Source: Butyrivibrio sp.
GTDB taxonomy: Bacteria > Bacillota > Clostridia > Lachnospirales > Lachnospiraceae
DNA: 64,000 nucleotides
Assembly (NCBI RefSeq): GCF_017940685.1
Contig: NZ_JAGAYD010000015.1
Coordinates: 3,785 to 67,784, forward strand
Direction of reading: 5' to 3'
Shown here in pieces: positions 24,830 through 32,300 of the stretch (positions are counted from its first letter, which is position 1; each line of letters begins with the position of its first letter). The notes beneath the pieces are model-generated. The model was given only the letters and a program-made list of their open reading frames with translations. It had not been told where the DNA came from and made no database searches. A program made the position numbers and the translations under genes.

Positions 24830-24850
24830 ATGCACAAAAAGGAGACGCAC

Positions 24851-25651
24851 ATGAACACACGGATTGTTACGATCACTGAACGTGCAATACTGCCCTTTGC
24901 AGGTTACCTGTCAGAACAGGAACAAAAAAAGGTGGGCACAAGGGGGTATTTTGCTCTTGGCGCCATTACGGATTTTGATCAGGGAGAGCTGGCATCCGGA
25001 GTGCTGACTTTTTTCGTGGAAAAAGACGAGGCTGTTATCTTAGCCCTTGCTGCCTATGACAGAGAAGAGGAGATACTTCATGACCTGCTGATGGAATATG
25101 CCAGGGTGTTTAAGAGTGCACACCTGAAGGAAACGGTGATCAGTCTAAAGGACCCCGAGATTTCGGATATTGCAGGCGGATTTTTAAAAGAGGAGAGGAT
25201 TCCACTAAAGATCAGACGTGATATGACTATTTCGGAAATCCCTGACGACCTTATGGAAAAGAGAGTGTATTCCGACAGTATTGCATTGCTCACGGAGCTT
25301 GATCATAACGAGAAAGAAGCCGTATATGAATATCTTGATAAAGAAAAGAAGATGCTATATCCGCTGCTTCCGGATGATGCCATTGCCATGTCGGATAAGA
25401 ATCTTTCTTATGTGTGGACAGAGGATGGCAGTGTGAAGGCAGTGCTCCTTATAAAGAAGGATGAGGATGGGCTCAGCCCGTTTTTCTACTCTGCTGATGA
25501 TAGCGAGATTGGTAAGGCAGTTATAGCACAGGCTGCTTCAAAGATAAAAAGCAGTATGCCGGGGGATACCGTTTTACACATATATGAGTTCGACCTGGAT
25601 CAGGTTAAAAGGAGCAGAATATGGGCGGAAACGAGGAAAGCTTACAGGTAG
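24851..25651 (+). CDS. Hypothetical protein, degenerate GNAT-like
   Basis: RBS aggag; alternating alpha/beta pattern like GNAT folds; overlaps the calpain gene start. Confidence 0.6.
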   Translation: MNTRIVTITERAILPFAGYLSEQEQKKVGTRGYFALGAITDFDQGELASGVLTFFVEKDEAVILALAAYDREEEILHDLLMEYARVFKSAHLKETVISLKDPEISDIAGGFLKEERIPLKIRRDMTISEIPDDLMEKRVYSDSIALLTELDHNEKEAVYEYLDKEKKMLYPLLPDDAIAMSDKNLSYVWTEDGSVKAVLLIKKDEDGLSPFFYSADDSEIGKAVIAQAASKIKSSMPGDTVLHIYEFDLDQVKRSRIWAETRKAYR

Positions 25652-28578
25652 AAAAACAGAAAAAACAGCAGGTCATTTCAAATGAGATCCAATCGAATGA
25701 AGAAATGAATGTTCAACAGGTTGTGGAAAACAACAACCAGATTGCGGTAAATGTCCAGCAGGAAGAGGCCCAACAGAACATAGAAAACCTTGTGGAAGCT
25801 GCAATGCCTCAGGAGATTAATGCTGAGGAAAGCAACCAGTTGCAGAGTATGCAGGCTGAGGCCATCAAACGTACCGAGACGGAAAAGAACATGCCCCAGA
25901 GTCATGCTTCTATTTCTGAAGCCAAGGCACGGCTTTTGGCTCATGGGAAAACCTTCGGGGACAGCGAAAAGATGAAGCTGGTGAAGAATAAGACCGAAGC
26001 GTTGCTTACCATGCTTAATGAAAAGATCGCCACTATTGTTGACGATGATGAGTTTGAAAAGAATCTGGACGAGATACATCAGGGGTATGATGAGCTTATC
26101 GTAGCCTGCAAAAAGTATGTCAAAAAAGCGGGGAAGCCCATTTTTCCAAGCGGTGCACAGCGCCTTTTGATCGTGAAGGATATACTGCTTCAGGCAACTT
26201 CTGAGCGCAAGATGATCGCAGACTCCGCAAGACGCCTTCGCCGCGCGGGATTCAAGGGAAGTAAGGGGGCTGCGCTCTATTCTTTTTCTGATGTTTTATC
26301 ACATGTGGCGGTAAATGACGGGGCCATAGAGAACGAGACACTTTCAGATGTTACAGAAGAAAACACCCAAAAGGTTCTTTTATCCCGGTTTGCAACCTGT
26401 ATCGGTGCAAGGGATCTGTATGAGAAGGCGGATATAAAATCCATGCGACGCGAGGACGGAAGCCTTCATGATGTTGTCAGCATTACGAAGCAAAAAAATG
26501 AAAACCTGAATATGCTGGATTCGAACAGGCAGGCCAATACCAGGCGAATCCTTGATGCGATAATTTCAAATAAGTCACAGAAGGAAATGCATGCGCTTTT
26601 GGTGGAGATAAAAAATTCGCCAGTAAAGGCGGATCATGATATCTTAAATAACCTTTTATCAACGGATGTAGAAGAGCTTCTGGGATCCTTTGGCAGTCTG
26701 TATGATGAAACAAAGGAGAAGGCTTTTAAAAAGTCTCTTTCGATCTTCTACAAAGAGGTCAAGGCGTCGGGACTTTCCAAGAGGATGGAGCTGTATGACC
26801 GTACAGGGGAGACCAGTGTTACGGTATCAGAATTCACCTGGCGGGAACGAAGCCAAATGTTGTCTAGTCACGGAAATATGATCTATGAACAGCATCAGGA
26901 TAGCAATGTTGTCGTACCTGATATCTTTATGGAGCAGACAGGCACGTTAGTTGTCCCACAAGGGAAAATCCATATGATAGATCATTCCAAAAAGGAGCCG
27001 CACCGGGTGTCTAAATCCTGGCCGTTTTTGAAGTGGTCAGATAAGAAGGATACCCCATTGTTCCAAAGAGAACCCAGTGTCAATGATATCGCTCAAGGTG
27101 CACTTGGGGACTGCTTCTTTATGACGGCTATAGGTAGTGTAGTCCAGGACAATCCAAAAGCCATCAAAGACATGATGAAGGATAATGGAGACGGCACCGT
27201 CACAGTACGCTTCTATCAATATGATGATTCAACGGATGAGAAACTGACCCCTGTGTATGTAAAGGTAAAAAAATCAGTTGTAAAGGTTAAGGGTTTTGGG
27301 TCTAATTACTTTGCTAGTGGTGGTAACGGGCTTTGGGTACGCATGCTTGAAAAAGCTTTCGTTTGTTCAGGACTTGCGGCAAGTTTAGATGCAAAGGTAA
27401 ACGAAATAAAAAAACAAGATCGTGATTTATTGAATATGGATTACGATCACTTTCAAAATCTGAAGATACTTGCCTCAGAGGCTACTTTGAATGAAGAGGG
27501 GAAGGATAAAAAGAACCTGAAACAGGGAAACTTTGAGATTCTTAACGAAGGAGGATTTACACCACTGGTGATGCCTCTTCTTACCGGAAAATATATGAAA
27601 ACGTCAGAGCTTGCGAAAGCAAACCTCTATGTGGAAGAAAAGGACAAGCGTGATAAAAAGAAAAAATACTCAGTTAGGCCAGAGTATGATACCAACTTTG
27701 AATGCCTGCTTCCTGATGCTCCAGAAATGGAATCCAGTGAGCGTCTCCGCGGTATCATGAAGCGAAATGATGAAAAGAAAAACAAAAAGATAAGTGACAA
27801 AAGCCAATGGATCGACAGAGTCAAAGAAAACCGTCCGGCAACTGTGAATGAGAGATATATAGTCCTCTATGAGAATTGCACCGGAAAGACAGTCAAAGAA
27901 GAAGATGAGAAAAAAGCCATATTCTTTGGTTATTATATACATGGTTTTTATACATATTATAAGGATCATAAAGAGCTGTCAGATGGCGACAAAAATCCCA
28001 GAGAGATTTTCATGAAGCTGATTCGGGCCTATACGGAAGCGTTTATAAAAAAGGACAAAGGAGGCCCGGAGTCGATACAGGAAAGGAGAGAATTTATCGA
28101 TTCAGAACCCTATCTGGATGCGGTGAAATGGCTGTTAAACGATAGGCGTGACGCTTGGGACGACAAAATGCTTAAGTATAAGCGTGGCACCGGCAAGTAC
28201 TATGGGCAGGTGAATAAGATCTATGATGACATAAAGAAGGCTCTTGATGACAAGCGAAGAATAACATATGCCGTTGCGAGCGAGAGATTGAAGCTTGCTG
28301 GCGGGAATAAAAAAGGTCTGTCAGGAGGCCATGCCTACAATATCACCGGAGTGGCAGAGCGAAAATTCGGCGGAAAGACCTATAAGTTTGTGATCTTGAG
28401 AAATCCCTGGGGTACAGCGGGAACGGAGTATTTTTATAATCCAAAGACCAAAAAACTGGATCGAAGAAATAATACCAAGGAAACCGGAGGCTATACCATG
28501 GTGGAACTAAGCGAATTTGCCATGTTCGGTGAAGACATGTCCATTGAGGAGAAGGAGGAAAAAGGCAATGACAAGTGA
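25621..28578 (+). CDS. Large C2-family (calpain-like) cysteine protease
   Basis: QGALGDCF (Cys), GGHAYNI (His), LRNPWG (Asn); Q/E/N-rich N-terminus; no signal peptide. Confidence 0.88.
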   Translation: MGGNEESLQVEKQKKQQVISNEIQSNEEMNVQQVVENNNQIAVNVQQEEAQQNIENLVEAAMPQEINAEESNQLQSMQAEAIKRTETEKNMPQSHASISEAKARLLAHGKTFGDSEKMKLVKNKTEALLTMLNEKIATIVDDDEFEKNLDEIHQGYDELIVACKKYVKKAGKPIFPSGAQRLLIVKDILLQATSERKMIADSARRLRRAGFKGSKGAALYSFSDVLSHVAVNDGAIENETLSDVTEENTQKVLLSRFATCIGARDLYEKADIKSMRREDGSLHDVVSITKQKNENLNMLDSNRQANTRRILDAIISNKSQKEMHALLVEIKNSPVKADHDILNNLLSTDVEELLGSFGSLYDETKEKAFKKSLSIFYKEVKASGLSKRMELYDRTGETSVTVSEFTWRERSQMLSSHGNMIYEQHQDSNVVVPDIFMEQTGTLVVPQGKIHMIDHSKKEPHRVSKSWPFLKWSDKKDTPLFQREPSVNDIAQGALGDCFFMTAIGSVVQDNPKAIKDMMKDNGDGTVTVRFYQYDDSTDEKLTPVYVKVKKSVVKVKGFGSNYFASGGNGLWVRMLEKAFVCSGLAASLDAKVNEIKKQDRDLLNMDYDHFQNLKILASEATLNEEGKDKKNLKQGNFEILNEGGFTPLVMPLLTGKYMKTSELAKANLYVEEKDKRDKKKKYSVRPEYDTNFECLLPDAPEMESSERLRGIMKRNDEKKNKKISDKSQWIDRVKENRPATVNERYIVLYENCTGKTVKEEDEKKAIFFGYYIHGFYTYYKDHKELSDGDKNPREIFMKLIRAYTEAFIKKDKGGPESIQERREFIDSEPYLDAVKWLLNDRRDAWDDKMLKYKRGTGKYYGQVNKIYDDIKKALDDKRRITYAVASERLKLAGGNKKGLSGGHAYNITGVAERKFGGKTYKFVILRNPWGTAGTEYFYNPKTKKLDRRNNTKETGGYTMVELSEFAMFGEDMSIEEKEEKGNDK

Positions 28579-29470
28579 GAATCATAGATTTGTTCGGAAA
28601 ATGGGTAATGCTCTTCGAATCCGGTTGGTGGATGATAAGAACAGTGAAAACTACGAACGTTTTTTGAAAGAAGGAGCAAAGCTTACTAAGGGTTACGAAG
28701 GGGCTGAGACAATTTCTTTTGGCATAGAAAACGAAGGGACTCCTGCAGGGGCCATGAAGCTATTCATCTTGGAGGGCAATGTGATCGTGGGATCAGTTTA
28801 TGTGGATGAAGAGGAGCGGCTGCAGGGGTGCGGTTCTACCCTTTTGGTCCGTGCCAAGGAGTATGCTCTTGAGAGAGATCTTCGTGTGGTTGCCTGTGAG
28901 GTGCCTGCGGATCAGGAAGATCTGTTGCCTTTTTTTGAGAAAAACGGATTTTACCATGATGAGGAAGAAGAATCAGACGGCTTTGCCATGATCTGGGAGG
29001 AGGAATTTGAGACAGAAGCAGTTATTCAGGAGAATCGATTCGATGCGCAGCGTCTGGCTGTAAATCTTGATCCCTTGATGACGATCATGGTGCCTAAGCT
29101 TATGAGGATAAAGGATTTTTTGGAAGAAGAAGGCTACGATGCCGAAGTGATCACAGGAGAAAAGAACTATATATGGGCAGATCATGGAGATTATGATATT
29201 CAGATTTCTTATCTCCCGGATGGTGGTCCACTTCGTGATTTTTATATGATATTCAGTTCTTTTATATCTATGGATGCTACGGAGGATGAGCTTCTTTTAA
29301 AAAGCAATGAGATCAATAAAAGTGCTTATTTCTTGACAGCCATTCCGGATGAGGGGGGAATAATGCTTCGTTACACCTTGACGGAGGCAGTGTATCCGGT
29401 TACAGAAGAAGCATTCTTTACCACACTTTTGGCTTTTGAAGCTGAATTAAAAAAAGCACTTTTACTGTAA
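28568..29470 (+). CDS. GNAT domain fused to a YbjN/T3SS-chaperone-like domain
   Basis: VDEEERLQGCGSTLL...FFEKNGF GNAT; acidic C-terminal NEINK...LRYTL pattern resembling YbjN. Confidence 0.65.
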   Translation: MTSENHRFVRKMGNALRIRLVDDKNSENYERFLKEGAKLTKGYEGAETISFGIENEGTPAGAMKLFILEGNVIVGSVYVDEEERLQGCGSTLLVRAKEYALERDLRVVACEVPADQEDLLPFFEKNGFYHDEEEESDGFAMIWEEEFETEAVIQENRFDAQRLAVNLDPLMTIMVPKLMRIKDFLEEEGYDAEVITGEKNYIWADHGDYDIQISYLPDGGPLRDFYMIFSSFISMDATEDELLLKSNEINKSAYFLTAIPDEGGIMLRYTLTEAVYPVTEEAFFTTLLAFEAELKKALLL

Positions 29471-31942: not shown

Positions 31943-32281
31943 ATGACGAAAGACCATGTGGAGGACGGCATGAGGGGGCAAAAGCAAAGAAAGGCAGAGA
32001 TAAAGCGGGTCGTTCTTGGCAAAACGGATGGTGTATGTGCCAGGTGTGGTAAACCCATCTCTTTTGAGAAGGCTACGATTGAGCATTTCATCCCCAAGTA
32101 CAGGGGCGGAGCTGATGACGAGAGAAATCTTCTTCCGCTATGCAAGAGCTGCAACAAGCAGAAGGGCTCAAGGATAGTGGCGGCAGAGGAGTATTACCCT
32201 TTTCTGAAAAGAGAATTCTGCAAGAACGCTGATGAATACAGGAATGAATGGAAAAGTAATGGACCATGGGGACGGGGTTAA
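31943..32281 (+). CDS. HNH endonuclease
   Basis: CARCG...TIEHFIP...GG...NLLPLCKSCN. Confidence 0.88.
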   Translation: MTKDHVEDGMRGQKQRKAEIKRVVLGKTDGVCARCGKPISFEKATIEHFIPKYRGGADDERNLLPLCKSCNKQKGSRIVAAEEYYPFLKREFCKNADEYRNEWKSNGPWGRG

Positions 32282-32300
32282 TGGACCATTTTAGGATTTT

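Follow-up and report, generated by a model that had tools for sequence, protein, structure and literature searches.

What is the function of a 985-amino acid, protease-like protein that lacks a secretion signal and whose gene overlaps two smaller genes, both related to GNAT acetyltransferases? This question is raised by a locus in Butyrivibrio sp. (NCBI RefSeq assembly GCF_017940685.1, contig NZ_JAGAYD010000015.1, positions 3,785 to 67,784), where the stretch analyzed, here called the window, is 64,000 nucleotides long. The three genes, designated orfA, orfB, and orfC, are probably an orphan cassette that encodes payload for an extracellular contractile injection system (eCIS). This cassette would comprise a calpain-type protease as cargo and two GNAT-like helpers, and the eCIS itself is encoded elsewhere in the genome. 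In window coordinates, the genes are as follows.

24851..25651, + strand: orfA, 266 amino acids, a member of the GNAT-like partner family F0 described below (basis: open reading frame and ribosome-binding site)
25621-28578, + strand: orfB, 985 amino acids, overlapping orfA by 31 nucleotides
28568..29470, + strand: orfC, 300 amino acids, with an ATG start at 28568, overlapping orfB by 11 nucleotides

A preliminary description of this DNA had reported three overlapping genes without a Sec signal in the middle one, and both observations hold. The open reading frames (ORFs) are co-directional, have coupled starts, and are each preceded by a Shine–Dalgarno site. The probable start of orfA is the ATG at 24851, with AAGGAG located 7 nucleotides upstream; a longer reading begins at 24830. 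The maximum Kyte–Doolittle value over 19-amino acid windows is no greater than 1.42 in any of the three proteins, none of which therefore has a Sec signal or a membrane segment. The large middle protein can be divided into the following parts.

25621..25884, + strand: leader (amino acids 1-88), Q/E/N-rich, acidic, and of low complexity; a candidate packaging signal
25885..26247, + strand: MOD domain (amino acids 89-209), a helical module of ~115 amino acids (basis: jackhmmer, alignment, and confident helices in the structural model)
26248..27028, + strand: middle alpha/beta region (amino acids 210-469), which packs with MOD in the AlphaFold2 model
27029..27420, + strand: N-terminal catalytic part of the calpain (C2) domain, with Cys498 at 27112-27114 (basis: PF00648 and alignment with calpain-8)
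27421..28212, + strand: K/E/D-rich insert of ~240-260 amino acids, which splits the Pfam match between the catalytic Cys and His
28213..28578, + strand: C-terminal catalytic part of the calpain domain, with His904 (28330-28332) and Asn928 (28402-28404)

The Pfam profile Peptidase_C2 (PF00648) matches orfB in two separated stretches with 60.8 bits (cut-off 23.8), and PDB entries for calpains 1, 2, 3, 8, and 9 match at E values of 1e-6 to 1e-4. When orfB is aligned with human calpain-8, the motifs LGDC(498)F, GGH(904)AY, and LRN(928)PWG coincide with the Cys, His, and Asn of the catalytic triad. By these matches, orfB is a member of peptidase family C2 (calpain) with a complete predicted triad. 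The Cys and His residues are separated by 406 amino acids, compared with ~160 in calpains, and the catalytic domain therefore carries an insert of ~240 amino acids. A C2 triad with a long insertion had been proposed earlier, and the alignment bears this out. The insert might regulate the predicted protease activity, or it might disrupt it.

Bacterial calpains (MEROPS C2), such as Tpr from Porphyromonas gingivalis, share with orfB the Cys/His/Asn triad, the lack of calcium-binding domains, and a patchy distribution (Rawlings 2015, PMC4631099). Most also lack a signal peptide, and many are joined to domains with a connection to delivery, WXG100 among them (PMC4631099). Unlike these proteins, orfB has the insert that separates Cys from His, a MOD domain at its N-terminus, and an association with eCIS. 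Residues 260-591 of orfB match calpain ORFs of the genus that are 1338-1379 amino acids long (genomes G007, G023, and G031). A second calpain ORF in the same genome as the window (1369 amino acids; G000:C238:15095-19204, also L021:5096-9205) lacks both a MOD domain and F0 neighbors.

The N-terminal portion of orfB is of a different character. The first 85 amino acids contain 19% Q, 18% E, and 14% N (51% Q+E+N) and have a net charge of -10, which agrees with the Q/E/N-rich N-terminus noted in the preliminary description. The predicted local distance difference test score (pLDDT) of the leader is below 50 in the model, and the leader is predicted to be disordered. A polar, acidic, and predicted-disordered leader is consistent with a packaging signal. 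An AlphaFold model of residues 80-470 (pLDDT 76, predicted template modeling score 0.76) has the helical module packed on the alpha/beta region. A Foldseek search with this model against PDB and BFVD gave no match at E<=1e-3, and yielded weak echoes of four-helix bundles, PI4K, and LegK7 only.

No Pfam family matches the MOD domain, whose motif is DSxxMxxVK...YxxlIxxCxxY...P...GKxR..V. A profile search of 1.84 billion representatives recovered MOD in 652 protein clusters at E<=1e-3, 180 of them at E<=1e-10. The preliminary description had suggested that this helical segment recurs in large Lachnospiraceae proteins with variable C-termini, and the search verifies its recurrence. MOD is present in other large ORFs of the genus, some of which have two copies, and three further MOD proteins are encoded on other contigs of the same genome. 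Divergent MOD paralogs with swapped enzymatic heads number four to seven per genome. Judged by these profile matches, MOD is a real, recurrent, and unannotated domain.

MOD proteins are 150-3435 amino acids long and contain one to five copies of the domain. The first copy begins within 150 residues of the N-terminus in 88% of the proteins. The leaders that precede it, examined in 131 family members, have a median length of 75 amino acids, are polar with Q enriched 1.8-fold, and carry a net negative charge in 76% of cases. Pfam recognizes only the C-termini of MOD proteins, and only some of these: Peptidase_C2 is found in five of 44, and others give weak matches to PI3_PI4_kinase or HipA_C. One MOD protein of 2216 amino acids ends in an ABC1/APH kinase. 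Most members share a GxxDRxxxN...IDxDxxFG motif, which suggests an atypical kinase. Because a PDB profile search with the kinase-like MOD proteins returned nothing significant, the "kinase" label rests on the weak Pfam matches and on this motif. These findings support the view that orfB belongs to a family of large, signal-less proteins that have a common N-terminal helical module and variable enzymatic C-termini.

Clustering of all genes in 34 MOD loci yielded one dominant neighbor family, F0, which consists of GNAT-like proteins of 250-320 amino acids and includes both orfA and orfC. An F0 gene is directly adjacent to 28 of 41 MOD genes and lies within two genes of 33. This adjacency is independent of the C-terminus of the MOD protein, be it calpain, kinase-like, or unassigned, and calpain ORFs that lack MOD have no F0 neighbors. 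Apart from generic GNAT matches, Pfam detects no family in F0 proteins. The GNAT-type genes that flank orfB are supported as conserved accessories. Two domains can be distinguished in the downstream partner, orfC, which is very acidic (net charge -32).

28643-28981, + strand: GNAT domain of orfC (amino acids 26-138; PF00583 at E 2e-10, PDB profile matches, and Foldseek at E 2e-7 with a TM score of ~0.65)
29105-29383, + strand: domain of orfC resembling YbjN and type III secretion system (T3SS) chaperones (amino acids 180-272; PF10722 just below the Pfam cut-off)

The preliminary description had assigned a GNAT and a YbjN-like domain to this gene. The first assignment is well supported by Pfam, PDB profiles, and Foldseek, in which the GNAT domain dominates the matches. 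Residues R84-x-x-G87-x-G89 are invariant in five homologs, and the N-terminal domain is a genuine GNAT with a predicted acetyl-CoA motif. The second assignment is probable. The YbjN profile (PF10722) scores 21.2 bits on orfC (cut-off 22), and the same region is matched in four of the five homologs (33-84% identity), with a best E value of 1.2e-4. The order of secondary structure elements at the C-terminus, a-b-b-b-a-b-a, fits the T3SS-chaperone/YbjN topology, with a pLDDT of only 35-60.

The upstream partner is more divergent. The orfA protein is acidic (net charge -14) and matches no profile in Pfam, NCBIfam, or PDB; a PDB profile search with orfA-type partners likewise found nothing significant. 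The F0 profile hidden Markov model matches it at E 6e-66. BLAST links orfA (1e-7) to F0 partners p254_L020 and p275_L019, and such partners have weak GNAT matches. An hhalign comparison of orfA with the orfC GNAT domain is collinear but weak (E 1e-3, probability 20%), and the RxxGxG acetyl-CoA motif is missing from orfA at the aligned position. Given the absence of the motif and the transitive nature of the links, orfA is at best a pseudo-GNAT, that is, a degenerate GNAT-like protein as far as its sequence indicates. The earlier label of "GNAT-like" is therefore retained on transitive BLAST and weak hhalign support, in a protein that has no direct family match.

The arrangement of a predicted enzyme with adjoining small genes resembles a toxin and its immunity determinants. 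In such an arrangement orfB would be a toxin delivered by an eCIS or by other means, and orfA and/or orfC would neutralize the protease by binding or acetylating it, rather than act as loading chaperones. The partner genes do overlap or abut the large gene as immunity genes do, F0 is as sequence-diverse as immunity families are, and inactivation by modification is possible since the acetyl-CoA motif of orfC is intact. We nevertheless regard this explanation as unlikely. A single partner superfamily accompanies unrelated C-termini (calpain, PI3/4K-like, ABC1 kinase, and giants without Pfam matches), so that partners do not covary with the toxin domain as they do in polymorphic toxin systems. 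The calpain ORF without MOD on contig C238 has no F0 neighbors, and neither does the MOD-calpain gene in locus L018. Two to three partners per cargo would also be unusual for immunity. The fact that F0 partners follow MOD whatever the C-terminus argues against classical toxin-specific immunity and for a role that depends on the N-terminal part common to these proteins.

The trio itself is rare but conserved. In a collection of 5.8 billion proteins, full-length relatives number six for orfB, three for orfA, and three for orfC. The order orfA-orfB-orfC is the same at the locus of a 71%-identical orfB ortholog from an uncultured Butyrivibrio metagenome-assembled genome (MAG), and the trio is also present, in the order B-C-A, with a 36%-identical ortholog; the proposal in the preliminary description required such synteny. 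Orthologs of orfA adjoin orfB orthologs in loci L002/L022 and L013. Searches of phage records with orfB by tblastn gave no match, and searches of plasmids gave generic C2 matches only (Streptomyces, Burkholderia, and Calothrix). Because no specific phage or plasmid match was obtained, the cassette is not a phage or plasmid gene set. Six relatives were inspected for an empty site or conserved flanks, but the flanking sequences are either missing from them or placed on separate short contigs.

Another large protein is encoded ahead of the distant orfB orthologs, with >484 amino acids in L013 (L013:2-1456) and >1287 amino acids on the contig that carries P0006. The former, in L013, has a kinase-like C-terminus, HCVDWLLCNFDTKGEH. 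Cargo genes therefore cluster at this position, where the window has a canonical hipBA pair.

Which delivery system could such proteins serve? The first clue to an eCIS came from metagenome contig L046, in which an AAA+ gene is followed by a MOD gene (P0020, 1181 amino acids) beside the baseplate genes Phage_base_V, gp25, Baseplate_J-like, and Tail_P2_I. To assess this association, the eCIS marker Pvc16_N was used, which has no match in 14 control genomes. Of the 12 MOD-positive relatives, 11 have Pvc16_N, compared with seven of the 49 that are MOD-negative (Fisher p = 8e-7). A second, independent sample of 201 genomes from across the order gave corresponding values of 4/5 and 13/196 (p = 1.7e-4), and the combination of MOD and Pvc16_N spans three genera. 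The sole exception in each sample is the genome with the weakest MOD match.

The genome that harbors the cassette has a complete eCIS-like locus outside the window, on contig C140 (G000:C140:16749-51422; L061, L062, and L067). Its genes encode a Pvc16_N cap, sheath, gp19 tube, two CIS_tube proteins, a Phage_base_V spike, gp25, two Baseplate_J proteins, and Tail_P2_I. It also includes an AAA+ ATPase with a winged-helix N-domain (WHD), preceded by a pair encoding an ABC-ATPase and a histidine-kinase-like protein. Downstream of the AAA+ gene are a 1558-amino acid Ig-like protein with a signal peptide, then an F0 gene and a 1400-amino acid helical protein. The AAA+ genes that abut MOD genes in loci L015, L040, L042, and L046 belong to the same family as the ATPase of the C140 locus. 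Six genes upstream of this locus (products of 620-905 amino acids) are syntenic in G007 and G023 and have no Pfam match except for a weak OEP match in one; they may belong to the system.

Physical linkage is also seen in two complete genomes of other genera. In G111, which is 100% complete, the eCIS structural operon runs directly into a co-directional MOD/F0 array with the order 1072aa-F0-800aa-F0-AAA+-MOD1677-AAA+-1340aa-F0-1452aa-MOD928-F0-F0-F0-MOD2286-F0-MOD1274-F0. Genome G213 has the same layout on the opposite strand. Both loci (G111:C1:137000-183000, L078-L080; G213:C5:28000-58000, L075-L076) carry two AAA+ paralogs, ~64% and ~30% identical to the ATPase of the cassette-bearing genome. 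Giant proteins of 800-2487 amino acids without Pfam assignments and many F0 genes are interleaved with the AAA+ genes, and a Pfam search with seven giant proteins of the G111 array gave no match. These arrays are a large uncharacterized payload arsenal. The MOD/F0 genes thus lie behind the structural genes and flank the ATPases, which is where known eCIS loci carry their payloads.

A further connection is provided by the calpain homolog P0014, which carries PF13699 (DUF4157). This domain is treated as eCIS-toxin-associated (PMC11297309), and the joining of calpain and DUF4157 in one protein therefore constitutes an independent link between C2 proteases and eCIS.

The preliminary description had proposed that orfB and its relatives are effectors exported by the flagellar T3SS or another non-Sec route, together with cognate accessory genes. 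The tie to a non-Sec delivery system has been strengthened by the eCIS co-occurrence and linkage, and it is the flagellar component that fails. Export by the flagellar T3SS or by a type VII secretion system (T7SS), with the YbjN-like domain of orfC serving as a T3SS-type secretion chaperone, would accord with the small, acidic nature of this domain, with the disordered N-terminus of the cargo, and with the flagellar export genes of the same genome. However, FlhA occurs in 53 of 61 relatives, including 38 that lack the module. Since it is nearly universal, FlhA shows no association and provides no signal for a flagellar route. WXG100 is absent from the cassette-bearing genome and from 8/12 module-bearing genomes, and orfB has no LXG or WXG Pfam match. 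Moreover, no flagellar or T7SS genes adjoin any of the 41 MOD loci, whereas eCIS genes do. Export of orfB by either route is thus extremely improbable.

The explanation best supported by these patterns is that orfB is the cargo of an eCIS. Payloads of the Photorhabdus virulence cassettes (PVC) have non-conserved N-terminal signals and depend on the AAA+ ATPase Pvc15 (PMC9054023, PMC11495950). By analogy, the acidic, disordered leader of ~85 amino acids and the MOD domain would mark orfB for recognition and loading by one or more AAA+ ATPases of the eCIS. The predicted calpain-type protease would represent the toxic or effector activity and would enter the target cell upon sheath contraction. 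The pseudo-GNAT orfA and orfC, with its active-looking GNAT and YbjN-like domains, would most likely engage the N-terminal part that MOD proteins have in common and serve there as chaperones specific to the cargo or as adaptors for loading. In addition, orfC may acetylate the cargo or keep it inactive in the producing cell. The genes and their domains, the protein family, the association with partners, the co-occurrence with eCIS, and the linkage in other genomes are observed directly; we infer the loading into particles, the use of the leader and MOD as a signal, the role of the partners, and the target organism.

The correspondence with payloads of PVC and the antifeeding prophage (Afp), which are loaded by Pvc15/Afp15, is considerable. 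The particle locus is similarly composed (Pvc16_N cap, sheath, tube, spike, gp25/J/I baseplate, and AAA+), large enzymatic toxins without signal peptides are encoded downstream of the structural genes, and the N-terminal leaders are disordered and poorly conserved. In contrast to PVC/Afp, the host is a Gram-positive rumen bacterium of the Lachnospiraceae type, the cargo has an additional conserved and folded helical domain in one to five copies, and the locus has two AAA+ paralogs. GNAT-like partner genes lie beside the cargo, an accessory family for which we found no eCIS counterpart described in the searchable literature. The orfABC cassette is also remote from the eCIS locus.

DUF4157 (PF13699) offers another comparison, as it has been proposed to be a cis or trans "chaperone" domain of eCIS toxins (Geller 2021; Danov 2024, PMC11297309). 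As with MOD, eCIS toxins of diverse kinds have in common a conserved domain that is not itself toxic and that may work in cis or be provided by genes nearby. However, DUF4157 is missing from orfB, MOD consists entirely of helices and shows no sequence relationship to it, and the trans partners described here have a GNAT fold. Similarities also extend to type VI secretion system (T6SS) adaptors (Eag/DUF1795, Tap/Tec DUF4123, and DUF2169) and to class I T3SS chaperones and YbjN. Like the F0 partners, these are small acidic proteins encoded beside the effector; they bind the N-terminal region of the effector, and their identity follows the delivery module rather than the toxin head. Their folds differ from those of the F0 partners, which include a GNAT fusion and whose binding to cargo is putative. 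YbjN proteins have no proven secretion role (PMC5398634).

We also consider it possible, although not probable, that MOD and its GNAT-like/YbjN-like partners represent an undescribed cargo-recruitment system of a Gram-positive eCIS lineage. In this scenario the partners, as chaperones or adaptors of which one possibly acetylates, would hand enzymes of up to ~3400 amino acids with one to five MOD copies to the AAA+ ATPase pair. Such a loading logic would be unlike that of the short disordered PVC signal.

Several observations weigh against the assignment of the cassette to an eCIS. The orfB gene is on contig C270 and the eCIS on contig C140 of a 281-contig assembly, and the cassette is not next to the eCIS locus. 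Its assignment therefore rests on family membership, namely on homology of MOD and the F0 partners. Phylogeny accounts for part of the co-occurrence in the genus, because the eCIS-positive genomes are a group of small MAGs. The packaging of MOD proteins is putative. The MOD domain can be present in multiple copies and can lie well away from the N-terminus, starting after residue 150 in 12% of cases, which is odd for a pure signal, and eight of 41 MOD genes, including the MOD-calpain gene of L018, have no F0 gene within two genes. Structural searches of PDB and BFVD were uninformative for the N-terminal fold of orfB. Furthermore, this contractile injection system (CIS) may be released from the Gram-positive cell or may act in the cytoplasm, as does the Streptomyces CIS, and recurrent PP2C and STAS genes near MOD genes would also fit a role in intracellular signaling.

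Some CIS are cytoplasmic, as exemplified by that of Streptomyces. In another explanation, MOD proteins (kinase-like or protease) and their GNAT-like partners could act inside the producing cell, as regulators of CIS assembly or lysis, in partner-switching signaling, or as an anti-phage or conflict module, and would then be linked to the CIS without being injected. This would accommodate the SpoIIE-type PP2C and STAS genes beside MOD genes as well as the retron, the TenpI RNA, and hipBA in the region of the window, which give it the flavor of a defense island. YbjN-type chaperone domains are known from intracellular conflict systems (PMC9503650). However, PADLOC found nothing relevant in the trio and a neighboring gene. 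The four to seven divergent paralogs per genome with swapped heads, the classical payload position downstream of structural genes and around ATPases, and the fusion of calpain and DUF4157 in P0014 all point away from a purely intracellular function, which we think is quite improbable.

The genes near MOD and the distribution of the system deserve some description. Membrane PP2C/SpoIIE-type genes (586-735 amino acids; L015:4963-6723, L028, L038, and L042) and STAS genes (L069:7367-7669 and L070:9311-9613) recur beside MOD/F0 genes. As partner-switching components, they may regulate expression of the cargo or of the CIS. Within the genus, eCIS and MOD are found mostly in small (2.3-3.0 Mb), incomplete MAGs from uncultured organisms. 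Large (~4 Mb) genomes that are 99-100% complete mostly have neither; G014 has both, and G016 has a weak MOD match only. This distribution suggests a distinct eCIS-armed sublineage in the genus.

Two other features of the window can be noted. The hipB and hipA genes are located directly upstream of the cassette, and it had been suggested that they could stabilize it. The adjacency is evident; the functional link is not sustained, as hipBA does not adjoin the cassette at the orthologous locus and is missing from six relatives. At positions 32260-32290, between an HNH-like and a GDSL-like gene, there is a stretch of ~31 nucleotides, aatggaccatggggacggggttaatggaccat. Related genomes contain dozens of copies with 87-100% identity, almost all of them arranged in +/- pairs ~43 nucleotides apart. 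This stretch looks like a dispersed palindromic element of the repetitive extragenic palindromic (REP) or miniature inverted-repeat transposable element (MITE) kind.

Both eCIS and eCIS toxins are already known, and a survey reported eCIS for ~1% of the genomes from the rumen (bioRxiv 10.1101/2025.07.29.667580). In the searchable literature we found neither MOD-like cargo domains, nor GNAT-like/YbjN-like eCIS accessory proteins, nor calpain payloads described. The MOD marker domain and the F0 helper family are, as far as we could find, undescribed.

How eCIS choose and load their cargo is poorly understood, which limits their use as programmable protein-delivery devices, and present knowledge of loading comes almost entirely from a few Gram-negative systems. 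MOD is a cargo marker defined by sequence and present in hundreds of protein clusters, and it would reveal payloads that are scattered around genomes. The F0 proteins, GNAT-like and in one branch YbjN-like, are candidate cargo helpers. For uncultured Butyrivibrio-type bacteria of the rumen, the findings point to an injection system equipped with eukaryote-like enzymes (calpain and PI3/4-kinase-like), which hints at interactions with protozoa and fungi of the rumen or with neighboring bacteria. They also offer a plausible role for one group of the enigmatic bacterial calpains.

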